In this document: positions 32,265-59,277 of the stretch, in pieces
Numbering within the stretch: position 1 is the stretch's first letter
How the letters are laid out: every line of letters begins with the position of its first letter
NCBI GenBank assembly: GCA_038065315.1
Contig: JBBTRF010000001.1
Span: forward strand, 592,458 to 656,457
Source: Patescibacteria group bacterium
GTDB lineage: Bacteria; Patescibacteriota; Minisyncoccia; Phycocordibacterales; JBBTRF01
Reading direction: 5' to 3'
Length of the DNA: 64,000 nucleotides
Position numbers and translations under genes: made by a program
Notes under the pieces: model-generated
Seen by the model: the letters and a program-made list of their open reading frames with translations, nothing else
Databases searched by the model: none
Told to the model about the DNA's origin: nothing

Positions 32265-32815
32265 TCATCGGTATTACAGGAACAATTGGTGCTGGCAAGG
32301 GCACGGTAGTGGAGTATCTGGTGCAGAAGAAAGGGTTCGTACATTTTTCTGCGCGGGCGCTTATTTTGGAAGAAGTGAAAAAGCGCGGATTGGAAGTGAT
32401 ACGAGAAAATACGACGCTGGTCGCCAATGATCTCCGCGCGGCGTTCGGCCCAGACTACATTGCCAAAGAGCTGTGCCGCCGCGCGGCCGAGGTCCAGAAG
32501 CAAGGCAAGAATGCTGTGGTGGAGTCGCTTCGCAGTATTGGCGAGATTGAATTCATCCGTGCTATTCCCGGCAGCAAGGTCTTCGCCGTGGATGCCGATC
32601 CAAAGATTCGCTATGAACGTGTTCAGTCCCGAAAATCCGAACTCGATCAGATCACCTTTGAGCGGTTTGCCGCTCAGGAAAAAGCGGAGATTAATCCTGA
32701 TGATCCAACCAAAGGGAACCTATCAGCTTGCATCGCCATGGCCGACGTTGTGTTTATGAACAACGGAAATTTTGAAGAGTTGAGCAAACAGGTCGAAAAA
32801 GCCCTCGCTCGATAG
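32261..32815 (+). CDS. P-loop nucleotide kinase (dephospho-CoA kinase/dNMP kinase-like)
   Basis: IIGITGTIGAGKGT Walker A. Confidence 0.6.
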   Translation: MIIGITGTIGAGKGTVVEYLVQKKGFVHFSARALILEEVKKRGLEVIRENTTLVANDLRAAFGPDYIAKELCRRAAEVQKQGKNAVVESLRSIGEIEFIRAIPGSKVFAVDADPKIRYERVQSRKSELDQITFERFAAQEKAEINPDDPTKGNLSACIAMADVVFMNNGNFEELSKQVEKALAR

Positions 32816-47702: not shown

Positions 47703-48674
47703 ATGTCGGTTGTCGGTAGAGAGAAGACCACTCTTAAAAAACACCACGCACAAATGACACACCAAGTTGTTCCCAACATCGCCGCATCAATGCCGTGCCC
47801 ACTCACTGGATTGCCCTTCGCGCTCCGGTTCTACCTCACCATGGTGGCCGAGACGAAAGGCGTCCTCGCCGCCGGCTACACCGGCATCCACGGCCAGGGC
47901 TATGCCGCCGCCTTCCTGAAACTCATCGGTGCCACGGCACAGGAGGTGCAAGACTTCTTCGCATCCCAGCCCAGCTACCTGGCTTACGCGCAGTGGCTCC
48001 GGCAGCGTTTGCAGGCCGGTAGCGTGTCCAAGCTGGCGATCCGCAAATTCGGGATCCTGGTCAGGACCTACCAGCATCGCGGATCTGCCCTCGAAGAAGC
48101 CTTGGCGGATGCCGGCATGACGGCTGAATCTGCGGGGACGGCCACGGCCGATATCCTGAACAGCCTTGGTGACATGCGGACCCGCTTCAGTCTCGGTCAA
48201 GGTGGCGCGCCGATCGCTGTTTACGGCATCCCCCTGACGCCCGCCAACAAGCGCTGTCCCTTTACCGGCCTGCTGGTCGCCGAGCGCTTCTACGAGGTTG
48301 CCCGGCTTGAGTCGGAAGGATACCTCGCCGAAGGCTACACTGGCGTTCACGGCAAGGGCTTCGCCGCGGTCTTCCTTGCGGCCATCAACCGCACGGCTGA
48401 CGAGGCCGACGAATTCTTCGCCGACGCTCCCAGCTACGATGCCTACGCCAACTGGGCCGCCGAGAAGCCACCTACCCGCAGTGCGCGCATCACCTTGGAA
48501 CTGGTGGTGGCCACCTACGACCACACGGGGGAGGCCCTCACCAATGCGCTCGCCGCCGCCGGTATGACGGCGGAGGAGTTGGGCAGCGAATCGGCCGAAG
48601 ACGTCAACCTCATGGAGGATGTGGCGACTTGGACTGCCGCGGTTCGTGCCATCACGCTCCCCGCCGCTGAATAG
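47703..48674 (+). CDS. high-GC hypothetical protein built from two ~150-aa internal repeats (CP(L/F)TGL...EGY(T/L)..GYTG(I/V)HG(Q/K)G(Y/F)AA(A/V)FL)
   Basis: internal duplication visible in translation; GC about 62%; start may be 47754. Confidence 0.5.
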   Translation: MSVVGREKTTLKKHHAQMTHQVVPNIAASMPCPLTGLPFALRFYLTMVAETKGVLAAGYTGIHGQGYAAAFLKLIGATAQEVQDFFASQPSYLAYAQWLRQRLQAGSVSKLAIRKFGILVRTYQHRGSALEEALADAGMTAESAGTATADILNSLGDMRTRFSLGQGGAPIAVYGIPLTPANKRCPFTGLLVAERFYEVARLESEGYLAEGYTGVHGKGFAAVFLAAINRTADEADEFFADAPSYDAYANWAAEKPPTRSARITLELVVATYDHTGEALTNALAAAGMTAEELGSESAEDVNLMEDVATWTAAVRAITLPAAE

Positions 48675-48695
48675 TTCCGACCTCGCGTTCTTCAA

Positions 48696-48730
48696 GACCG
48701 CAGCCCCCCAGGCTGCGGTCCTTTCTTTTT
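48696..48730 (+). terminator. rho-independent terminator GACCGCAGCC..GGCTGCGGTC + T-run
   Basis: read directly. Confidence 0.7.
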
Positions 48731-48764
48731 CCTAAAATACGTCGAAAATGCTAGAATGCTTTTT

Positions 48765-50489
48765 ATGAAAGTCCGACTCGAAAAAGCTTTTGCTTCTGTC
48801 CTCACCGACCTTGGCGTCTCTGCGCCGAAGGCATCTTTTGAGCATCCTGAGGTGATCGCGCACGGCGACTACGCCACTGGTGTTGCGCTCGCATATGCGA
48901 AACAACTTGGCATGAAGCCACGCGATCTCGCGGAGAAGATCGTCGGCGCTCTAAAGCTCGGACCGCTGGTAGAGAAGATCGACATTGCCGGTCCAGGGTT
49001 CATCAATATCCACTTGTCGAAGCAGTTTTTTGCCGAGGCTTTGGCGACCATTGAAAAGCAGGGCGAGACTTTTGGTACGAATGCACGTCTGAAAGGGCAG
49101 AAGGTGCTAGTGGAATACACCGACCCGAATCCGTTCAAGGTGTTTCATATTGGGCACTTGATGTCGAATGCGGTCGGCGAATCGGTCGCGCGCTTGATGG
49201 CGGCGAGCGGCGCAAAGACCGTCCGCGCGAACTATCAGGGTGATGTCGGGCTCCACGTGGCGAAGGCGGTGTGGGGGATGCAATCCCTGAATGCGACGGC
49301 GAAGCTCGCTCAATTGAAGCAGCTTCCGGCAGCCGAGCAGGTGGCGTTCATTGGCAAAGCGTATGTACACGGTTCGGAGCAATATGAGGCCGACAAATCG
49401 GCTGAAGCAGAGATTCAGCTCATCAATCAGGCTGTTTTCGATCGGAAAACTGCGGAGGTAAATATACTATACGATTGGGGGAGGAAAGTGACCCTAGATC
49501 ATTTTGAATTGATCTACAAAAAACTTGGCACAAAATTCGACCATTACTTTTTCGAGAGCGAAGTGGCGCAGGATGGGCTGGAGATGGTTCGTGGTGGACT
49601 CGGGAAGAGTGTGTTTGTGGAAAGCGAGGGTGCGATTGTATTCAAGGGTGAGGAACATGGCTTGCATACACGCGTGTTCATCACTTCTCGTGGCTTGCCG
49701 ACGTATGATGCGAAAGAGCTTGGATTGGCCAAGCAGAAATTTGAATTGATCAAACCAGATTTGTCGATTGTGGTGACGGCGAATGAGCAGAGTGAATATT
49801 ACAAAGTGTTCATGCGAGCTTTGTTTTTGTTGCGTCCGGAGATCGCGGAGCGCACCAAGCATGTCAGCCACGGCATGATGCGTTTTGCGAGCGGGAAGAT
49901 GTCGTCGCGAAAGGGCAATGTGGTGGCGGGGGAGGCGTTGCTCGCTGATGCTGAAGCAATGGTGGCGGAGAAGATCAAGGATCGCGGTTTCGATGCGCCG
50001 ACCGCGGCCGAGGTGATGGAGAAGGTTGCTGTTGGTGCGGTAAAGTATTCAGTCTTGAAGTCCGCCGCCGGCAGCGACATCGTGTACGACCCAGAAAAAG
50101 CTGTTTCTTTTGACGGCGATTCTGGTCCGTATCTCCAATATTCATATGCTCGCGCTCTGTCGGTGCTCCGCAAGCCGGAAGCGGTGGCGTTGTTAAAAAA
50201 CAGCACTTCAGACATTGCGACGGGTACCGAGATCGGTCAACTCGAAAAACTTCTCTACCGTTTTCCGGAAGTGGTGGACCGTGCCGCCGGCTCGTTTGAA
50301 CCGCATTTTGTCACCGACTACCTCACGCAGCTCGCCGGCGCCTTCAATGCCTTCTATGCGAACAATCAGATCATCAACCCCGAAGATGCCACCACCTCGG
50401 CATACCGCCTCCGCCTTGCTCGTGCTTTTACGACCGTGATGAAGAACGGCCTCAACCTACTCGCCATTCCGGCGGTGGAGAGGATGTAA
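48765..50489 (+). CDS. argS: arginine--tRNA ligase
   Basis: class I HIGH (FHIGHL) and family-wide similarity. Confidence 0.85.
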   Translation: MKVRLEKAFASVLTDLGVSAPKASFEHPEVIAHGDYATGVALAYAKQLGMKPRDLAEKIVGALKLGPLVEKIDIAGPGFINIHLSKQFFAEALATIEKQGETFGTNARLKGQKVLVEYTDPNPFKVFHIGHLMSNAVGESVARLMAASGAKTVRANYQGDVGLHVAKAVWGMQSLNATAKLAQLKQLPAAEQVAFIGKAYVHGSEQYEADKSAEAEIQLINQAVFDRKTAEVNILYDWGRKVTLDHFELIYKKLGTKFDHYFFESEVAQDGLEMVRGGLGKSVFVESEGAIVFKGEEHGLHTRVFITSRGLPTYDAKELGLAKQKFELIKPDLSIVVTANEQSEYYKVFMRALFLLRPEIAERTKHVSHGMMRFASGKMSSRKGNVVAGEALLADAEAMVAEKIKDRGFDAPTAAEVMEKVAVGAVKYSVLKSAAGSDIVYDPEKAVSFDGDSGPYLQYSYARALSVLRKPEAVALLKNSTSDIATGTEIGQLEKLLYRFPEVVDRAAGSFEPHFVTDYLTQLAGAFNAFYANNQIINPEDATTSAYRLRLARAFTTVMKNGLNLLAIPAVERM

Positions 50490-50503: not shown

Positions 50504-51464
50504 ATGTCAGTTTTATCTGAGAAACACAAAAAAGTTTTAAAATATCTTGTAGATACGTTCGATAATGCCGGAATTTTATTCCAAGCTACAAGCGGATTGG
50601 CGGCTAACGTCTACGGATCTTCTAGATCACTCTACGATATTGATATAGATGTGTACAAAAAAGATATTCCTAAAGCACAGGAACTTTTCAGGAAGCATGT
50701 CGTTTCTGATTTTGTACATGAGCAGAATGAATCATTTGATCTTTACGAATTCACGCTCAAGATTGATGGCGTTACTGTTGATGTAAGCCAAGCAGAAGAA
50801 AGTTACGCGATAGGGAAGGATGGGACAAAGATTTTAGTAATGAATGACATTAAAAATGCATCAAAACATACCTTTGAAGGGATTGCTTTCAGGGTACTCG
50901 ATAAGGGGCAGTTAGTCCGGTATAAGACTCATGTTGCAAGGAGTACTGATTTGAGTGATGTGAAAGAGATAACAGCTCTTGCTAGCAAAGTACACATCTA
51001 CATTGATGGGAATAACCTCTATCGTGGCGCAAAAGAACTTGGTTTCACTATTGATTATAAAAAGTTCAGAGGTTGGCTTCGCCAAAAATATAATCCAACG
51101 AGCGTTTATCTATATCATCGGTCTTGTTCCTGATAGGGTAAAATTCTACGAATACTTGCAGGAATGTGGTTTCATCTTGATTTTTAAGCAGACTGTTTCT
51201 GTGGGAGGGGTAGTGAAGGGTAATTGCGACGCGGAATTAGTACTCAAGACTATTTCAGATTTTTATACGAAAGCGTTCGATAAATGTATGCTTGTAACGG
51301 GCGATGGTGACTTTGGTTGCGTGGTTGAATTTCTAGCGGGTAATTCGGCATTGGGTGGCATAATCGCTCCAGATAGGAAAAAGTGCTCAATTTTGCTTAA
51401 GAATAAAAATATTGAAATTACTTTCCTCAACGAACATTATCACAAGTTCTCAACCCCTTTATAA
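50504..51464 (+). pseudogene. nucleotidyltransferase-like N-terminus fused to NYN-domain (LabA-like) RNase, interrupted by a frameshift near 51100
   Basis: frame 1 HIYIDGNNLY... ends at 51133; continuation of NYN fold (LVTGDGDFGCVVEFL) in +1 frame 50979-51464; AT-rich. Confidence 0.5.
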
Positions 51465-51635: not shown

Positions 51636-54600
51636 ATGAACGAGACTCCTAAAACCCCTCCCGCAAGCCCAAAAAGCCCCCACGCTGAGCGCGAGGAGAA
51701 GGTGCTGTGTTTGTGGGCGCAAGAACAAATCTTTGCTAAAAGCCTCGAAAAGGCCTCGCCAAAGGGTGAATTTGTCTTCTATGACGGCCCGCCATTTGCC
51801 ACCGGTCTGCTTCATTATGGCCACATTTTGGCAGGTACGATTAAGGACGCGATCCCGCGATACAAGACGATGCAAGGCTTCCACGTGCCGCGCCGTTGGG
51901 GCTGGGATTGCCACGGTTTGCCTGTCGAAAATATTGTCGAAAAAGAGATTGGTTTGAAGTCGAAAAAAGATATTCTCGACTACGGTATCGACCGTTTCAA
52001 TCAAGCGGCCCGCGACACCGTGCTCCGTTATGCGCACGTGTGGGAAGAGCAGGTGCCACGTCTTGGTCGCTGGGTGGATATGAAGAACGAGTATCGCACC
52101 ATGGATACTTCATACACCGAATCCGTCTGGTGGGTGTTTAAACAGCTTCATGAAAAGGGTCTGGTGTACGAGGGTTTCAAAAGCATGCACCTGTGTCCGC
52201 GCTGTGAGACGACCTTGTCGAATTTCGAAGTGAATCTCGGGTACAAGGACGTCACCGATATTTCAGTGTACGCAAAGTTTGAATTGAAAAGCGAGCCGGG
52301 AACATTTTTTGTTGCGTGGACGACGACACCGTGGACCTTGCCGGGCAATGTTGCCCTCGCTGTTGGTCCGGAGATTATGTATGCGAAGGTGAAAGTGACC
52401 GACGCAAAGACTGGCGCGGTTTCGCGAGTGATCGTGGCGAAGGAAAAGCTTGTAGCCGTGATGAAGGATGTGCCGTACGAAGTGCTTGCTGAGATGAAGG
52501 GCGCGGAATTGGTCGGCAAAGAATACACGCCGGTATTTTCATACTATATTAGCGACGAAAAGTTGAAAAATGTGCAGAACGCCTGGAAAGTATACGCGGC
52601 AGATTTCGTGACCCTCGAAAAGGGCACTGGCATCGTGCATATCGCGCCGGCGTTCGGCGAAGATGACTACCAGCTCAGTCTAAAGATGCAGCTGCCATTT
52701 ATTCAGCATGTCGGCATGAATGGCGCGTTCAAAAAAGAGGTGGCGGATTTTGCCGGCCAACAGGTGAAGCCGAAGTCAAGCGAGACCGAAAAAGACGCGC
52801 ATCAGAAGACAGACATCGAGATCATCAAATATCTGGCACAGAAGGGCACACTGTTTGCGAAGGAAAAGATCATTCACTCGTATCCACATTGTTGGCGTTG
52901 CGAGACACCGCTGCTCAACTACGCGTCTTCGTCGTGGTTTGTACGCGTGACCGATTTCAAAGACAAGCTCGTCGCGGAAAACAAAAAGGTGAAGTGGGTG
53001 CCACGAGAGGTGGGCGAAAACCGTTTTGGCGATTGGCTCGAAAATGCTCGCGATTGGGCGATCTCACGTTCGCGATTCTGGGGAGCGCCGCTGCCGGTGT
53101 GGAAGTGTCAGTCTTGTGAGCAGGTGAAGGTATTTGGCAGCACTGCGGAACTCAAGAAGGCATTGAAGCCGCGCAATACCTACTACGTGATGCGCCATGG
53201 CGAGGCGGAACACAATGTTCAGCGCATCATGAGCACTGATCTGGCAGACTGTCATCATCTCACGGAGAAGGGTCGGCGACAGGCGCTTGAGGCCGGCGAG
53301 GTTTTGAAGGACAAAAAGATCGACGTCATTTTTGCCTCACCTTTTTTGCGCACACAGGAGACCATGAAGGAGGTTTGCGAGGTGATTGGCTTTGATCACA
53401 AGAAGATTGTGAAGGATCCACGTATTGGAGAGATTCGTGCCGGCGTATTCAACGGTCGGCCGGTGGGCGAGTACCATGGCTTTTTCGGCACGGGAGAATA
53501 CGCACGCTACGTGAAGCGTCCACAAGGCGGCGAAAACTACACCGATGTTCGGGCGCGCGTCGCGGAGTTTCTCTACGACATCGATGCACGATATGAAGGG
53601 AAAAATATCTTGGTCGTGACGCACGATTCACCAGCGTGGTTCTTGTCTGCTGAAGCTGAGGCGATGAACAGTGAGCAGGCAAACACGCTCCGCGGCACAA
53701 CACCATTTTTCCTAAAGAATGCCGAAGTGCGACCGCTGCCTTTCGCGGCGCTATCTTGCAATGCCGAGCGTAAAGTGGATCTGCATCGACCGTTTATCGA
53801 CGGTGTCGCTTTGTTGTGCGCCTGCGGCGGCGACATGAAACGCGTGGCGGAAGTGTTTGATTGCTGGTTTGAGTCCGGCTCAATGCCATATGGCGAAGCG
53901 CGTTATCCGGCGGAGCAAAAGAATGGTTTCCGACCGGCGCGAAACGTGTTTGATCGATGGTTTGGCCGATTCACTGGCCGCGTGAAAAGATATCCAGCTG
54001 ATTTTATTGCCGAAGGTCTCGACCAGACCCGCGGCTGGTTCTACTCGATGCTCGTGCTCGGTGTCGCTCTGTTCGGCAAGTCGCCATACAAGCAGGTGGT
54101 GGTGAACGGTCTCATCCTCGCGGAAGATGGTCGCAAGATGTCGAAGAGCCTGAAGAATTATCCCGATCCGATGAAGGTTGTCGATGCGTATGGTGCCGAC
54201 GCCCTGCGTTTTTATTTGCTCAACTCGCCGGTAGTGCGCGGCCAAGATCTCTGCTTCTCGGAGAAAGGGGTCGATGAAGTGGCAAAAAAGCTCCTTGGTC
54301 GTCTCGACAATGTCCGTTCTTTCTATGAGCTCTACGCCGATGCTTCTGTCGTCGCTTCTCGAAATTCAACAAACGTCCTCGACCGCTGGATCCTCGCACG
54401 TCTCGCAGGGCTGGTCAGCGAAGTCACTGATGCGTTTGAAGGGTACGAGCTCGACAAGGCTTGCCGACCATTCAATGGTTTTGTCGATGATCTGTCGACT
54501 TGGTATCTGCGCCGATCTCGCGATCGTTTCAAAAATACCGATGGCGCTGCTGCTCCGGAGGCCGTGGCCGACAAAAAAGCTGCACTCGAGACCACTCGTT

Positions 54601-55262
54601 TTGTATTGCGAGAAGTGGCCAAAGTCCTCGCGCCTATCATGCCGTTCTATGCAGAGTCGCTGTATCAGTCTTTGAAGGCTACTGGTTGTGTCGATGATAT
54701 TTCTCTCCTGAGTGTGCATCTCGAGAGCTGGCCGTCAGTCGCTGAGGTTTGTAAGCAATCGACAAAGGCGCAGGCACAGATTGTGGCCGACATGGCCGAT
54801 GTTCGCTCGACAGTTTCTCTTGGTCTCGAGGCACGTATGCAAGCGAAGATCAATGTTCGACAGCCGCTTGCGCGATTGTCGGTGAAGAAATTGCCAAAGG
54901 GTGTCGATGCGGCGGAACTCATCGAACTCGTGAAAGATGAAGTGAATGTAAAGAAGGTCGATGAGAGTGTGTCGATAGACGGCGCAGTACTTCTCGATAC
55001 CGTACTTACTCCGGAGCTCAAGGAAGAGGGTATTGTTCGCGACATGATTCGATCGGTGCAAGATCTTCGCAAGCAGTCTGGTCTCAATCCAAACGATCGA
55101 GTGGATCTCTTTGTTGATACCGATGAGGCAGGCAAGCGCTTCCTCGAGAAGTACCAGGGGGTCTTGTGCAAAGTGACCGGCGTGAAGCAGGTGCGATGGG
55201 AGATCGTACAGCAAGGAGTTCATTTGGAGTTCGACGGATTGAGGTTTGGTTTGAAGCTGTAA
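51636..55262 (+). CDS. ileS: isoleucine--tRNA ligase (type 2) with inserted histidine-phosphatase (PGAM-like) domain
   Basis: GPPFATGLLHYGH HIGH, KMSKS; about 200-aa insert with RHGEAEHN between the conserved zinc-ribbon region and DLHRP block. Confidence 0.85.
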   Translation: MNETPKTPPASPKSPHAEREEKVLCLWAQEQIFAKSLEKASPKGEFVFYDGPPFATGLLHYGHILAGTIKDAIPRYKTMQGFHVPRRWGWDCHGLPVENIVEKEIGLKSKKDILDYGIDRFNQAARDTVLRYAHVWEEQVPRLGRWVDMKNEYRTMDTSYTESVWWVFKQLHEKGLVYEGFKSMHLCPRCETTLSNFEVNLGYKDVTDISVYAKFELKSEPGTFFVAWTTTPWTLPGNVALAVGPEIMYAKVKVTDAKTGAVSRVIVAKEKLVAVMKDVPYEVLAEMKGAELVGKEYTPVFSYYISDEKLKNVQNAWKVYAADFVTLEKGTGIVHIAPAFGEDDYQLSLKMQLPFIQHVGMNGAFKKEVADFAGQQVKPKSSETEKDAHQKTDIEIIKYLAQKGTLFAKEKIIHSYPHCWRCETPLLNYASSSWFVRVTDFKDKLVAENKKVKWVPREVGENRFGDWLENARDWAISRSRFWGAPLPVWKCQSCEQVKVFGSTAELKKALKPRNTYYVMRHGEAEHNVQRIMSTDLADCHHLTEKGRRQALEAGEVLKDKKIDVIFASPFLRTQETMKEVCEVIGFDHKKIVKDPRIGEIRAGVFNGRPVGEYHGFFGTGEYARYVKRPQGGENYTDVRARVAEFLYDIDARYEGKNILVVTHDSPAWFLSAEAEAMNSEQANTLRGTTPFFLKNAEVRPLPFAALSCNAERKVDLHRPFIDGVALLCACGGDMKRVAEVFDCWFESGSMPYGEARYPAEQKNGFRPARNVFDRWFGRFTGRVKRYPADFIAEGLDQTRGWFYSMLVLGVALFGKSPYKQVVVNGLILAEDGRKMSKSLKNYPDPMKVVDAYGADALRFYLLNSPVVRGQDLCFSEKGVDEVAKKLLGRLDNVRSFYELYADASVVASRNSTNVLDRWILARLAGLVSEVTDAFEGYELDKACRPFNGFVDDLSTWYLRRSRDRFKNTDGAAAPEAVADKKAALETTRFVLREVAKVLAPIMPFYAESLYQSLKATGCVDDISLLSVHLESWPSVAEVCKQSTKAQAQIVADMADVRSTVSLGLEARMQAKINVRQPLARLSVKKLPKGVDAAELIELVKDEVNVKKVDESVSIDGAVLLDTVLTPELKEEGIVRDMIRSVQDLRKQSGLNPNDRVDLFVDTDEAGKRFLEKYQGVLCKVTGVKQVRWEIVQQGVHLEFDGLRFGLKL

Positions 55263-55287: not shown

Positions 55288-55881
55288 ATGGCTCACCACA
55301 TGTATCACACGCCGGGGTTGGTGCTGAGCTCTCGCGGAGTGGGCGAGGCCAATTCGCTGTTCAGCATTTTCACTCGTGAGCTCGGCATGATTGAGGCCTC
55401 TGCGCAGGCTGTCCGGGAGGTGAAGTCGAAGCTGCGATTTTCGTTGCGTGACTTTTCGCTTTCGGAATTGTCACTGGTGCGCGGCAAGCAGGGGTGGAAG
55501 ATCACGAGTGCCGTGCTCGAAGGCAATTTTTCTGATACCTATGGCCCTGGCTCATCTTCACTCCTCGTCGCCGCTCGTATCTCGAGCTTGTTGCAGCGCC
55601 TCGTGGCCGGCGAGGAGAAAAATGACCATCTTTTTGACACGGTGAGTACAGCACTCCACTTTCTTTCTGCCGAAACCTTATCAGAGGAAGAGCTCGCGAA
55701 TGCCGAATGTATTCTTGTACTCTCTATTCTCCACGAACTCGGGTATCTGCAAGACGAATCCGCTTTTCAGCCTTTTGTCGGCGACGTGCAATGGAGCCGT
55801 GACCTGGTCCGATCGGCTGCACCGCTACGTACGAAGATTATTGCGCAGATCAACACCTCACTTCGAGAGAGCCAAATGTAG
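55288..55881 (+). CDS. recO: DNA repair protein RecO-like
   Basis: N-terminal OB-fold pattern GLVLSSR..GE...FSIFTRELG. Confidence 0.55.
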   Translation: MAHHMYHTPGLVLSSRGVGEANSLFSIFTRELGMIEASAQAVREVKSKLRFSLRDFSLSELSLVRGKQGWKITSAVLEGNFSDTYGPGSSSLLVAARISSLLQRLVAGEEKNDHLFDTVSTALHFLSAETLSEEELANAECILVLSILHELGYLQDESAFQPFVGDVQWSRDLVRSAAPLRTKIIAQINTSLRESQM

Positions 55882-55902: not shown

Positions 55903-57840
55903 ATGAAGCCGTCTTTTGATAAGGGTCGGATCGAAAATGCCAAAAGGAAGCTCGATTCCCGGTTGGTTCAAGATATTCAAGAAGTTGAGCCGTCTTTGGC
56001 AAAAGACGAGGCCTTGAGTGTGAGGCATGATTGGGGTACGCAGCAGGCGGGAGGCTCGCCAGTGGCACCGATGGCACTCTTTCCGCAACAACACGCCAGC
56101 GTGCCCAAGAAGATTCTCATAGCCTCAGTTGCTTTTTTCATCGTCGCGGCCGGTATTTCCGCGACGCTCATCTTTGGCGGCCACAATAACATTTCTTCTG
56201 ACAATATTGGTATCGAAATTTCGGGCCCGATCACTGTCGATGGTGGCAAAGAACTGGCTCTCGAGGTCACTGTTTCCAACAACAACAAAATCGATCTTCA
56301 GCTTGCGGACCTCCGCATCGTATTTCCGGAGGGTACTCGCAAAGCCGACAATCTTGGCGAAGAGCTCAAGCGTCTGACCGATCCGATTGGTGATTTGGCG
56401 GCCGGTCAGTCGGTAAAGAAGCAAGTTCGCTCAGTCTTGTTTGGACAACAGAATGAAAAGAAGCAGATCTTGTTCGAAGTTGAGTATCGAGTCGCCGGTT
56501 CTAATGCGATCTTCACTAAAGACAAGACACTCGACGTCATTGTCACGTCATCGCCAGTGAGTCTCACTGTCTCTTCGCTAAAGGAAGTGAATTCAAAGCA
56601 AGATCTGGAATTCACTATCGATCTCGTCTCAAATTCTTCACAGATTCTAAAGGGTGTCATTGTGCGTGGGGATTACGGCTTCGGCTTTACCTACACTGGT
56701 GCCGATCCAAAGCCCTTCCTCGGTCAAAATGTGTGGCGTATTGGTGACCTCCAGCCTGGAGAGAAGCGCTCAATCCGCGTGCGTGGTCGTCTTGAGGGGC
56801 AGGATGGCGAAGATCGGGCCTTCCATTTTTCGGTAGGTGTTCAGGGTGCGGGTGATCCAAAGACGATGCAGCCAGAGTTTTTGTCGGTGGCCCAGACCGT
56901 TTCTATCAAAAAGCCTTTTGTCAGCCTCGATCTAACTCTCGACGGCTCTAGTGGGCAATTGTTGGCTGCGACAGCCGGTCGCCCTGTCCGCGGCGAGATC
57001 GCTTGGGCAAATAATTTGCCGACCAAGGTGCGCAATGTGAAAGTTGTCCTAAAGCTTAGCGGTATGCTCATCGACAAGTCTTCCGTAAAGGTCACGGATG
57101 GTTTCTATAATTCAGTCGACAACACGATTGTCTGGGATCAGAAGAATACGAAAGCCTTTATTGAAATGAGTCCGGGCGACGCTGGGCAACTCACTTTCTC
57201 TTTTGCAAGTATTGCTCAGGATATCGGCGCCCTTGATCAGTTTAAGAACGCTGAGATCTCTCTAGAGGTTGGTGTACAGGGGAGTCGTACCGACGGTGTG
57301 GATGCTTCAGAGGTGCTTGCTACACCGGTCACCAAAAAGGTACGCTTCGCTTCGGACCTGGCCGCCCTCGCTCGCTCCACTCGCTCGGTCGGCGTCTTCT
57401 CCAACACCGGTCCGATCCCACCGAAAGCTGAAACACAGTCTACATATACGATCATTTGGTCGCTCACCAATACCACGAACACCATCGACGGCGTGCAGGC
57501 TGTCGCGACCATCCCTTCGTATGTCACCTGGCTTGGCAACGTGAATCCGCCTTCTGAAAATGTGGCTTTTGATTCGACCACCGGTACGATCACATGGAGC
57601 GTCGGTGAAGTGAAGTCTGGTGTCGGTTTCTCTTCAGCGCCGCGGCAGCTACAATTCCAAGTCTCTCTTGTGCCGAGCGTGAGCCAGGTCGGTTCCGCGC
57701 CTGTGCTGGTGAATGACCTAATGGTGCAGGGCACCGACCGCTATACTGGTACGCCGCTTCAGGTGAGTCGCCCGGCAGTGACGACCCGCATTAATTCCGA
57801 TCCGACCTACGTCAACGGATCGGAGACAGTGGTGCAGTAG
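55903..57840 (+). CDS. large membrane-anchored surface protein with Ig-like/CARDB-like repeats
   Basis: one TM near N-terminus; beta-rich repeats. Confidence 0.55.
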   Translation: MKPSFDKGRIENAKRKLDSRLVQDIQEVEPSLAKDEALSVRHDWGTQQAGGSPVAPMALFPQQHASVPKKILIASVAFFIVAAGISATLIFGGHNNISSDNIGIEISGPITVDGGKELALEVTVSNNNKIDLQLADLRIVFPEGTRKADNLGEELKRLTDPIGDLAAGQSVKKQVRSVLFGQQNEKKQILFEVEYRVAGSNAIFTKDKTLDVIVTSSPVSLTVSSLKEVNSKQDLEFTIDLVSNSSQILKGVIVRGDYGFGFTYTGADPKPFLGQNVWRIGDLQPGEKRSIRVRGRLEGQDGEDRAFHFSVGVQGAGDPKTMQPEFLSVAQTVSIKKPFVSLDLTLDGSSGQLLAATAGRPVRGEIAWANNLPTKVRNVKVVLKLSGMLIDKSSVKVTDGFYNSVDNTIVWDQKNTKAFIEMSPGDAGQLTFSFASIAQDIGALDQFKNAEISLEVGVQGSRTDGVDASEVLATPVTKKVRFASDLAALARSTRSVGVFSNTGPIPPKAETQSTYTIIWSLTNTTNTIDGVQAVATIPSYVTWLGNVNPPSENVAFDSTTGTITWSVGEVKSGVGFSSAPRQLQFQVSLVPSVSQVGSAPVLVNDLMVQGTDRYTGTPLQVSRPAVTTRINSDPTYVNGSETVVQ

Positions 57841-57891: not shown

Positions 57892-59277
57892 ATGGCCGAC
57901 ACACACACCACAATGGAATCCATCATCTCGCTCTGCAAGCGCCGCGGTTTCATCTACCAAGGTTCCGAGATCTACGGCGGCCTCGCCGGCACTTGGGACT
58001 ACGGTCCGCTCGGCGTGACCCTCCGCAATACGATCAAGCAGCTCTGGTGGAAGCGTTTTGTCGATGACCGCGAAGACATGTACGGCGTCGACGCTGCTAT
58101 TTTGATGAATCAGAATGTTTGGAAAGCGAGCGGGCATGTTGGTGGTTTCTCCGACCCGTTGGTGGAGGATCTCAAGACCAAGAAGCGTTTCCGCGCCGAC
58201 CACTTACTCGAGGAAAAGGGGATTGACCCAAAGGGTATGACTCCAGCGCAGATGGATGCGCTGATCAAAGAGCAGAAGCTCAAGAGTCCTGAGGGCAACG
58301 CACTTGGTGAAGTCCGCCAGTTCAACATGATGTTCAAGACGCATGTCGGTGCGATCCAAGACGACACCTCTATTTCATACCTTCGACCGGAGACCGCGCA
58401 GGGCATGTTCGTAAACTTCAAGAATATCGTCGACACTTTTCATCCGAAATTACCGTTCGGCCTCGCACAGATCGGCAAAGCCTTCCGCAACGAGATTGCA
58501 CCTCGAGATTTCATCTTCCGTTTGCGAGAGCTCGAGCAGATGGAGATCGAATATTTTGTTGATCCTCGCGATACCAAGCAGGTGAATGAGACCTTTGATG
58601 CGCTCTACGCTGAGCAAGTCGCTTTTTTGAAAGACCTCGGTCTTGCTAGCTCGAAGATCCACAAGGTGGAGATTCCAGATGCCGACCGCGCGCACTACTC
58701 GAAGCGCAGTGTTGATACTGAATTTGATTTTCCATTCGGCCAGAAGGAGTTGCTCGGTCTCGCATATCGCACCGACTACGACCTCAAGGCGCACACTGAC
58801 AAGAGCGGGGTAGACCTCTCGTATTTCGATGAAGAGACCAAGACACGCTTTACGCCGCATTGCATCGAGCCGACTTTCGGTGTTGACCGACTTACCTTGG
58901 CCCTGCTTTCCGATGCCTACACCGTCGACGAGCTCGGCGGCGAGAAGCGCGAGTTTTTGAAGCTCTCCCCGAAAGTGGCACCGATTCTCGTGGCGGTCTT
59001 TCCTTTGCTGAAAAACAAACCTGTGCTCGTTGACAGGGCTCGCGAGATCTACCTCAGCCTCAAAAAGCAGCTCGGCCGCACCGCCTTCGACGACAACGGC
59101 AACATCGGCAAGCGCTACCGACGTCAGGACGAGATCGGTACGCCATTTTGTGTGACTGTCGATTTTGATACTGTCGAAAAGCCAGAGCAGGAGGTGACCG
59201 TGCGCCATCGCGATACCGGTGCTCAGGAGCGGGTGAAGATCAGCGAATTGGCAGCGTATCTTTCGGCTCGAGTCTAA
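57892..59277 (+). CDS. glyQS: glycine--tRNA ligase (alpha2 dimeric type)
   Basis: class II motifs; N-terminus SLCKRRGFIYQGSEIYGGL. Confidence 0.85.
   Translation: MADTHTTMESIISLCKRRGFIYQGSEIYGGLAGTWDYGPLGVTLRNTIKQLWWKRFVDDREDMYGVDAAILMNQNVWKASGHVGGFSDPLVEDLKTKKRFRADHLLEEKGIDPKGMTPAQMDALIKEQKLKSPEGNALGEVRQFNMMFKTHVGAIQDDTSISYLRPETAQGMFVNFKNIVDTFHPKLPFGLAQIGKAFRNEIAPRDFIFRLRELEQMEIEYFVDPRDTKQVNETFDALYAEQVAFLKDLGLASSKIHKVEIPDADRAHYSKRSVDTEFDFPFGQKELLGLAYRTDYDLKAHTDKSGVDLSYFDEETKTRFTPHCIEPTFGVDRLTLALLSDAYTVDELGGEKREFLKLSPKVAPILVAVFPLLKNKPVLVDRAREIYLSLKKQLGRTAFDDNGNIGKRYRRQDEIGTPFCVTVDFDTVEKPEQEVTVRHRDTGAQERVKISELAAYLSARV

Follow-up and report, generated by a model that had tools for sequence, protein, structure and literature searches.

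A predicted histidine phosphatase nested within the CP3 subdomain of a patescibacterial isoleucyl-tRNA synthetase and encoded by a separate upstream gene in sister lineages

The stretch of DNA analysed here, hereafter the window, comprises 64,000 nucleotides (nt) from a Patescibacteria group bacterium (GenBank assembly GCA_038065315.1, contig JBBTRF010000001.1, forward-strand positions 592,458 to 656,457) and carries an ileS gene whose product, an isoleucyl-tRNA synthetase (IleRS) of 1208 amino acids (aa), holds a predicted histidine phosphatase nested within its core. The gene stands between argS and a downstream series made up of recO, a DUF11/CLIPPER-like gene and glyS (Table 1). Judged by its sequence, it encodes an intact, functional-looking type-2 enzyme, that is, one of the eukaryote-like kind. 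The TIGR00392 ileS model scored 877.7 bits against a cut-off of 621.4, with the match split into two stretches flanking the insert; Pfam likewise returned tRNA-synt_1 in two stretches, together with Anticodon_1 and, at aa 1117-1205, DUF5915, the type-2 C-terminal domain that here replaces the bacterial zinc-binding domain. The class I signatures (HYGH at aa 60 and KMSKS at aa 834) and the CP1 editing motifs (TTTPWT at aa 229 and GTGIVHIAP at aa 330) are in place, and the top solved relatives were eukaryotic IleRS, Priestia IleRS2 and Thermus IleRS. The part of the protein that follows the insert (aa 713-1208) holds the rest of CP3 (DLHRP, C728/C730), the second Rossmann half (CWFESGS, KMSKS), the anticodon-binding domain and the type-2 C-terminal domain. 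The window IleRS stayed far below the cut-offs of the mupirocin-resistance models MupA and MupB (687 and 711 bits, cut-off 1900) and of the ileS_w_GNAT model NF040702 (331 bits, cut-off 1999), and Pfam returned no acetyltransferase domain in it.

Alignments to solved IleRS fix the boundaries of the insert. In the human cytoplasmic enzyme, query residues 18-508 correspond to human 14-490 and the match resumes at query 713 (human 496), while in the yeast enzyme query 514 pairs with residue 496 and query 714 with residue 498, so that ~200 aa stand in for only 1-5 residues of CP3. This subdomain was defined in Candida IleRS as residues 473-534 (PMC7191050), and the insert falls inside it. A sequence-only reading of the window had proposed a PGAM-like domain at 53130-53780, a span that encloses the aligned insert, between the zinc-ribbon region and a DLHRP block preceding KMSKS. 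The insert lies within the zinc ribbon rather than after it, flanked by the Cys pairs C491/C494 and C728/C730, and the DLHRP block is found ~115 aa upstream of KMSKS, not directly before it. From either junction it is 20-30 residues to the active-site motifs, DWAISR...PVW and CWFESGS. The same reading had judged the enzyme some 170-200 aa longer than typical type-2 enzymes, an estimate that agrees with the length of IleRS in insert-free relatives (939-976 aa). PF00300 matched aa 517-685 through its positions 2-169 of 194, with an E value of 1.4e-31 and 110.1 bits, the gathering score being 21.7. A score so far above the gathering level excludes a chance RHG motif and, together with the alignment boundaries, an ordinary IleRS subdomain. 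In base composition the insert equals the remainder of the gene (G+C 0.544 versus 0.527; G+C at third codon positions, GC3, 0.618 versus 0.605).

Table 1. Features of the ileS locus, in window coordinates. Subdomain names in the N-terminal part of IleRS follow PMC7191050.
Feature	Position	Strand	Basis
argS (ArgRS, 577 aa), upstream member of the block	48756..50489	+	Pfam, synteny
ileS, type-2 (eukaryote-like) IleRS, 1208 aa, with nested phosphatase	51636..55262	+	continuous open reading frame, TIGR00392, Pfam, motifs
IleRS N-terminal part, aa 1-508 (first Rossmann half, CP core, CP1 editing domain, CP2, first half of CP3)	51636..53159	+	aligns with human IleRS 14-490 and yeast IleRS 12-496
HIGH signature (HYGH, aa 60-63)	51813..51824	+	motif
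First Cys pair of the CP3 zinc ribbon (C491, C494)	53106..53117	+	alignment of 121 close homologues
Nested histidine phosphatase, aa 509-712, with C-terminal linker	53160..53771	+	Pfam, IleRS alignment, AF2, Foldseek
Pfam His_Phos_1 core, aa 517-685	53184-53690	+	PF00300
RHG motif: R520, putative nucleophile H521, G522	53193..53201	+	121/121 close homologues
R572, putative second phosphate-binding arginine (SPFLRT motif)	53349..53351	+	121/121; 107/107 embedded copies
E599, putative general acid/base	53430..53432	+	121/121; E or D in 106/107 embedded copies
H663, putative second catalytic histidine (VVTHDSP)	53622..53624	+	121/121; 105/107 embedded copies
IleRS C-terminal part, aa 713-1208	53772..55259	+	aligns with human IleRS 496-883; Pfam Anticodon_1, DUF5915
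KMSKS signature (aa 834-838)	54135..54149	+	motif
recO, downstream member of the block	55288-55881	+	Pfam
DUF11/CLIPPER-like protein, downstream member of the block	55903-57840	+	Pfam
glyS, downstream member of the block	57892-59277	+	Pfam

Conservation of the domain was scored across 121 aligned sequences, namely the window protein and the 120 homologues that matched it best (56-83% identity), and in a wider sample of 153 domain copies from 150 representatives of 50%-identity clusters, 107 of these copies being embedded in IleRS. The two motifs quoted in the sequence-only reading are both there, RHGEAEHN at aa 520-527 and the HD-S segment as VVTHDSP at aa 660-666, and the expected catalytic residues recurred almost without exception (Table 1). 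Indeed, the R and H of RHG were found in every embedded copy covering those columns (104 of 107, the other three being gaps), E633 and R641 were invariant as well in all 121 close homologues and N527 in 120 of them, while adjacent positions vary freely. The catalytic residues were retained in essentially all 153 copies. The domain-only AlphaFold2 (AF2) model reached a pLDDT of 91.8 and a pTM of 0.89, the same region of the full-length model showing pLDDT values of 84-95. Foldseek returned top superfamily members from the PDB at probability 1.00 and TM scores of 0.70-0.77, led by PspA (4IJ5/4IJ6; TM 0.77) and PhoE (1H2E; TM 0.76) and including glucosyl-3-phosphoglycerate phosphatase (GpgP, Rv2419c), TIGAR, the riboflavin-pathway histidine phosphatase 9MMH and CobC; a PDB search with the insert sequence also retrieved PhoE (E 6e-14) and PspA (E 1.4e-12). 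The PF00300 score, the catalytic core and the alpha/beta/alpha fold of the AF2 model place the insert in branch 1 of the histidine phosphatase superfamily, with a core that, on the alignments and models, is intact, well folded and under strong purifying selection.

Assignment to a narrower family gave a different picture. Among the models for the phosphoglycerate mutase dPGM, dPGM_arch was the best NCBIfam match by name at 76.7 bits (cut-off 225), pgm_1 scored 31 (81.7) and the PRK dPGM models fell far below their cut-offs. PspA (64.4 versus 350), CobC TIGR03162 (64.1 versus 162.9) and SixA (37.9 versus 74.5) behaved alike, and the second-best NCBIfam match, the RNase H/acid phosphatase model NF005567 (74.6 versus 326), aligned only through its phosphatase half (positions 172-337). 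Membership in all five of these families was consequently rejected. Since every curated NCBIfam equivalog scored far below its cut-off, the insert is best described, from sequence and predicted structure, as a short, capped histidine phosphatase of the small-molecule type outside every named subfamily, whose cap keeps the basic and aromatic residues K608, F617, R/K624 and F625. The label PGAM-like is thus apt for the superfamily but not for the enzyme, which resembles PhoE and PspA rather than a phosphoglycerate mutase. Pfam and NCBIfam scores, structural alignment, catalytic residues and a confidently predicted fold all uphold the proposal of a histidine phosphatase domain lying in frame inside a bona fide IleRS.

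The segment joining the phosphatase to the returning synthetase is itself conserved, a P-L-P-H-N linker being kept in at least 109 of the 121 homologues. This linker (aa 705-709; window region 53772-53777) is without counterpart in free phosphatases or in insert-free IleRS, and the window's own version deviates, reading L-S-C-N. We considered whether the wider motif LDFxPLPHNxEYEL is a relic of the IleRS N-terminus MEFNLPKIEEKIL, as a permutation route would leave behind, and found no support for the idea in an ungapped scan with a position-specific scoring matrix, which ranked the N-terminal windows only 7th-77th in 10 of 11 IleRS of the separate type. All four zinc-ribbon cysteines of CP3 (53106-53117 and 53817-53825) are present in the window protein, yet the full set survives in only 38 of the 121 close homologues, so that this clade can dispense with zinc binding in CP3 but not with the phosphatase. 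Further downstream, a catalytic-domain loop before YPADFIAEG bears a 17-aa clade-specific extension, RNVFDRWFGRFTGRVKR (53940-53990, IleRS aa 769-785); in other patescibacterial IleRS this loop carries extra His_Phos_1 copies (P0177, P0186) or a GNAT domain (P0214).

The nested architecture is widespread in Paceibacteria/Parcubacteria. PF00300 was present in all 120 best homologues of the whole protein (1150-1247 aa), which derive from Patescibacteria, Taylorbacteria and Paceibacterota metagenome-assembled genomes in NCBI, JGI, ENA and Logan. Searching with the insert alone retrieved 9007 cluster representatives at E <= 1e-3 and 848 at E <= 1e-10, and an insert-profile scan of GTDB species genomes found matches in at least 154 species, from which we kept 80 loci. 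The domain was embedded in IleRS at the same CP3 position in 73 of these 80, whose labels include Taylor-, Yonath-, Nomura-, Zambryski-, Campbell- and Staskawicz-bacteria as well as Paceibacterota, Parcubacteria or Minisyncoccia. In a neighbour-joining tree the window IleRS clusters with Taylorbacteria sequences. The module, which the sequence-only reading had called unusual in an aminoacyl-tRNA synthetase (aaRS), is a clade-wide trait of Paceibacteria and not a peculiarity of the window genome. Many nested IleRS are named by NCBI merely as 'class I tRNA ligase family protein', a label under which metabolic reconstructions of these genomes may overlook the enzyme and count it as absent.

A search with P0246 led to a family of free Patescibacteria proteins annotated as 'histidine phosphatase family proteins', and ~40 such proteins of 190-210 aa occur among the cluster representatives. 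In all five long contigs examined, the free phosphatase gene (~190 aa) lies directly upstream of an ileS that lacks the insert (939-976 aa), at distances from a 4-nt overlap to a 58-nt gap, and argS immediately precedes it in four of them; in the remaining contig (L006) argS is displaced by a restriction-modification system and the phosphatase-ileS pair is retained. Six further free cases from GTDB show an insert-free ileS following on the same strand, abutting in four and separated by 0.85-1.4 kb in L068 and L069, which brings the pairing of free phosphatase and insert-free ileS to 11 of 11 contigs. The order argS-[phosphatase]-ileS-recO-CLIPPER/DUF11-glyS, seen in L001, L003-L005 and L007-L009, matches that of the window, and in three insert-bearing genomes argS is followed directly by ileS within the same block. 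Neither tblastn on both strands of the flanks of 64 insert-bearing loci, the window's included, nor six-frame phmmer across the 64-kb window detected a second phosphatase copy. Because none of the 64 insert-bearing loci has a free copy nearby, the free and nested forms are mutually exclusive versions of one partnership; and because sister lineages encode the phosphatase as a separate gene directly before ileS, gene order and sequence point to a long-standing, dedicated gene partner of IleRS that has been hard-wired into the synthetase in the window genome.

In the window, the interval between argS and ileS is occupied by a 1.1-kb segment of low G+C content (38-40% versus ~53%) at 50504-51464. 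It contains two overlapping open reading frames that look like one gene with a frameshift near 51100-51130, the product being nucleotidyltransferase-like in its N-terminal part and an NYN domain in the rest (PF01936, E 3.5e-8), and it is without flanking repeats. The segment fills the exact slot of the sister lineages' free phosphatase; in other insert-bearing genomes argS and ileS are only 29-39 bp apart.

The history of the two states was traced by neighbour joining of IleRS sequences from which the insert had been cut out (72 sequences, 887 columns, 100 bootstraps), embedded (E_) and separate (S_) enzymes being marked. Both states are mixed in supported clades, namely {E_L080, S_L003} (100%), {E_L080, S_L001, S_L003} (100%) and {E_L076, E_L084, S_L004} (98%). 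In the phosphatase tree, in turn, L001 and L004, both free, form a clade with the nested L084 domain (89%). That domain shares 58% identity with the L001 protein and no more than 45% with any other nested copy, and motifs typical of the free members, RHGETIYQ and SHGDPLWLLEG among them, recur in its sequence. The mixing of states within well-supported clades indicates that the form changed, from free to nested or back, at least two or three times, as read from trees that are distance-based. Sequence features at the insertion point speak to the direction of these changes in two ways. In insert-free enzymes the site is a short loop, for instance ELSKKSGKKIEDLHRP (SGKKI[D/E]DLHRP in separate-type enzymes), that resembles the eukaryotic ELSGAKISDLHR (SGAKISDLHR), and so native-looking a loop favours repeated insertion; the linker motif LP(H/Y)N common to nested copies favours a single insertion with later excisions. 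A free gene could have become nested through tandem duplication of the two neighbours (P-NC to P-NC-P-NC) followed by two in-frame deletions, which would leave N::P::C.

The two forms also differ in charge. Relative to their own IleRS, the free phosphatases carry a median of +5.6 net charges per 100 aa, with 7 of 11 exceeding +3, versus -0.2 for nested domains relative to their hosts (Mann-Whitney p = 0.004, uncorrected for phylogeny). Free forms (L001-L006 and, from GTDB, L055, L062, L068, L069, L072 and L089) are often extremely basic, up to +13.5 per 100 aa with an isoelectric point of ~10, and the basic ones exceed in charge the ArgRS and IleRS encoded beside them. As a sequence trait, a basic free form would fit the need for an electrostatic handle on RNA or on a complex, without being decisive.

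Rarer arrangements, the multi-copy ones known here from representative protein sequences, extend the series. P0171 contains four phosphatase copies, one of them in CP2, P0186 three and P0213 two; in P0177 CP3 is empty, its two copies lying at non-canonical loops. Among these proteins the copies occupy up to four loops, in CP2, in CP3, before YPADFIAEG and where the anticodon-binding domain joins on, and the catalytic residues are intact in all copies. The IleRS P0214 combines the phosphatase with a GNAT domain and with an IS200-like Y1 transposase domain that sits in frame within its editing domain; its regions of added domains span aa 340-461 and 935-1063. Patescibacterial IleRS seems to be a hot spot for domain accretion. 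Two fusions outside IleRS were set aside as evidence of function. P0250, an ArgRS with the phosphatase at its C-terminus, is accounted for by simple adjacency of the two genes. P0225 is a TsaC/Sua5 protein with a C-terminal phosphatase, a fusion found in only four clusters, and TsaC/Sua5 in Patescibacteria is joined to many unrelated partners (most commonly Ogt-like PF01035, and also TruB, a 2H cyclic phosphodiesterase (CPDase), NUDIX, GNAT, DNA glycosylase and, rarely, the phosphatase), so that it does not serve as independent Rosetta-stone evidence.

Collectively, conserved residues and gene order make it very probable that the domain has phosphatase activity and belongs to IleRS as its dedicated gene partner. 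By the chemistry of its family, H521 would attack a terminal phosphoryl group held by R520, R572, H663 and N527, E599 would protonate the leaving group, and the resulting phospho-histidine intermediate would then be hydrolysed. In IleRS, residues of the CP3 stems lie on the flanks of the synthetic active site (PMC12077802; PMC7191050). Hanging on CP3, whose two stems border that site, the phosphatase may constitute an extra hydrolytic site of IleRS for a ligand that bears phosphate and takes part in aminoacylation. That the phosphatase is truly coupled, in chemistry or in function, to the reaction cycle of the synthetase is our leading but tentative reading, on which the balance in our judgement leans slightly to the negative. 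As its substrate, a by-product with a terminal phosphate, inorganic pyrophosphate (PPi) first and then AMP or another nucleotide, is the leading candidate, though an unlikely one; IleRS turns over much ATP through the editing of valine. A phosphate-blocked 3' end of tRNA-Ile is a less probable substrate, and a regulatory or sensing role is more doubtful again. Of the possible roles that the sequence-only reading had put forward (editing, aminoacyl-adenylate or nucleotide hydrolysis), that on aminoacyl-adenylate is chemically unlikely for this enzyme class, since the compound is not a phosphomonoester. An approximate E. coli inorganic pyrophosphatase query gave no match in the 64-kb window, a stretch too short for this absence to be informative, and the literature searched on pyrophosphatase in Parcubacteria/CPR added nothing of use. 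In its fullest form, coupling would make this a three-site IleRS, with synthesis, editing and phosphatase sites, the last docked as its own subunit in some lineages, nested in CP3 in the majority, and acting in cis by unblocking (pyro)phosphorylated tRNA-Ile 3' ends or by destroying PPi at its source; we consider this improbable, and if it were true the switching would document an operon partner becoming a domain insertion where it was already docked. Several points weigh against coupling. Branch-1 histidine phosphatases are phosphomonoesterases, and we know of none that is an inorganic pyrophosphatase; the need for such a site in IleRS rather than in every aaRS has no explanation; the occurrence of two to four intact copies at other loops argues against one precise geometry; adjacency of phosphatase and ileS may be inherited rather than selected, since the whole argS-ileS-recO-glyS block is conserved; fusion alone is weak evidence, patescibacterial gene fusions being promiscuous; and the free phosphatase of L006 is acidic, so that the charge contrast is not universal.

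Nearly as likely as coupling is that the domain is a passenger: an independent housekeeping phosphomonoesterase for small molecules, PhoE-like and perhaps broad in specificity, that merely shared an operon with ileS and has no chemical link to aminoacylation, became nested in a permissive CP3 loop by near-neutral duplication and deletion, and was kept since both activities are needed. A small-molecule substrate would be equally reachable by a free or a nested domain, which would explain the interchange of states, the copies in other loops and the ArgRS and TsaC fusions; Patescibacteria readily join housekeeping genes that have nothing to do with one another, the domain folds like capped small-molecule phosphatases, and what is conserved is the whole gene block and not the phosphatase-ileS pair alone. 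Such independence sits less easily with a pairing kept in all 11 free cases, mostly as overlapping or abutting reading frames and even where argS is displaced (L006), with the use of one CP3 site by 73 of 73 embedded GTDB loci though other sites are tolerated, with the conserved linker after the domain (PLPHN in at least 109 of 121), or with the loss on nesting of the unusual positive charge of free forms. Within coupling, the domain might instead clear the 3'-terminal nucleotide of bound tRNA-Ile, before charging, of a blocking 2'/3'-phosphate or of a (pyro)phosphate added by a toxin, as a third catalytic site for the flexible CCA end analogous to CP1 editing. The strongly basic free forms (to +13.5) and the nested forms that match their host would suit a free protein needing its own RNA-binding surface, and the basic and aromatic cap residues noted above, the second-best NCBIfam match to an RNase H/acid-phosphatase family and the 2H cyclic phosphodiesterase among TsaC partners point the same way; the HD domain of the E. 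coli CCA-adding enzyme, with phosphatase and 2',3'-cyclic phosphodiesterase activity, offers a precedent. We nevertheless think tRNA end repair distinctly improbable, for we know of no 3'-phosphate lesion specific to tRNA-Ile, an enzyme for tRNA repair at large would, once nested, serve a single tRNA, the copies that adjoin the anticodon-binding domain lie far from the acceptor end, the cap is of the small-molecule kind and not the open site of the macromolecule-directed SixA and PGAM5, and the charge pattern is neither universal nor corrected for phylogeny.

The remaining explanations carry little weight. CP3 is the most variable IleRS subdomain, its topology differing among Thermus, Staphylococcus and Candida (PMC7191050), which would suit a structural expansion that keeps the phosphatase fold as a non-catalytic scaffold; catalytic residues that are invariant in 121 homologues and in nearly all of 153 copies, next to neighbours that vary freely, make this very improbable. 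Fusion of a glycolytic dPGM to IleRS, suggested by dPGM_arch as the best NCBIfam match by name, is hardly credible at 76.7 bits against 225 in a domain of ~190 aa that is devoid of the dPGM-specific segments and C-terminal tail and whose nearest solved relatives are phosphatases. We regard an assembly chimera, an intein or a recently acquired mobile insertion as practically negligible, with nothing but the unusual architecture in its favour: the reading frame is continuous, the same architecture recurs in independent NCBI, JGI, ENA and Logan contigs, and G+C and GC3 match the host gene. An intein was rejected on its junctions as well, the N-terminal one reading K-P-R-N-T-Y and the linker HN being followed by a variable residue (A, D, S, E, Q or I; CN-A in the window), and on Pfam, which matched His_Phos_1 and no intein family.

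Two further features of the window lie outside this locus. G+C content rises to 64% at 48000-48700 (surroundings ~52%) across an open reading frame at 47703-48674 (323 aa, no Pfam match) that faces a long opposite-strand reading frame. ARAGORN reported a 'tRNA-???' with a four-base anticodon at 32621-32713 on the minus strand; Rfam did not report it at its gathering threshold, and the call is therefore probably a false positive.

Aminoacyl-tRNA synthetases are among the best-studied enzymes, and their known accessory modules are editing, tRNA-binding or protein-interaction domains. Here, a phosphatase predicted to be catalytically intact is nested in the core of one of them and conserved across a large part of the Patescibacteria radiation. 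Full-text searches and the AARS Online paper yielded no description of a phosphatase-in-IleRS architecture, and sequences that bear it have been public for years under automatic annotation only; new here are the complementary upstream free gene and the repeated switching between free and nested states. Should the phosphatase act on the aminoacylation cycle, it would be a new kind of catalytic site in an aaRS and might hint that translation in ultra-small symbionts has some particular requirement, for instance for product clearance or tRNA end repair. As a passenger, too, it provides a natural series, from abutting genes through single nested to multi-copy forms with several changes of state, that is useful for asking how operon neighbours become domain insertions and which aaRS loops tolerate them.

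Compared with known systems, the insert is closest in fold to PhoE of Geobacillus stearothermophilus (1EBB/1H2E) and PspA/iPSP1 of Hydrogenobacter thermophilus (4IJ5), with TM scores of 0.76-0.77 and root-mean-square deviations of 2.3-2.5 A over ~192 columns; all are of ~200 aa, share the same R-H...R...E...H set and align through the cap region. Identity is just 26-28%, however, and those enzymes are free-standing with defined or broad small-molecule substrates, whereas the insert is nested in, or genetically tied to, IleRS. With dPGM it has in common the superfamily and the RHG phospho-histidine chemistry, but it is shorter and without mutase-specific elements. The mycobacterial RNase H/acid phosphatase (Rv2228c / RnhC; NF005567) likewise joins a CobC/PhoE-like His_Phos_1 domain to a nucleic-acid enzyme, although end to end and with RNase H as the partner, while the insert is nested and has no RNase H domain. 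In ileS_w_GNAT (NF040702) an IleRS has also acquired an accessory enzyme domain, which the window IleRS lacks; P0214 has both GNAT and phosphatase, the GNAT in another loop, before YPADFIAEG. The HD phosphohydrolase of the CCA-adding enzyme is a phosphatase on a tRNA-3'-end enzyme that has been proposed to heal that end, but its metal-dependent HD fold is unrelated and the likeness conceptual. Close in concept, too, is the CP1 editing domain of IleRS, ValRS and LeuRS, which is likewise a hydrolase set into this Rossmann fold. CP1, a universal part of the three enzymes, has another fold and hydrolyses mischarged aminoacyl esters, whereas the phosphatase is clade-specific, sits in CP3, would use phospho-histidine chemistry and is a separate gene in sister lineages.

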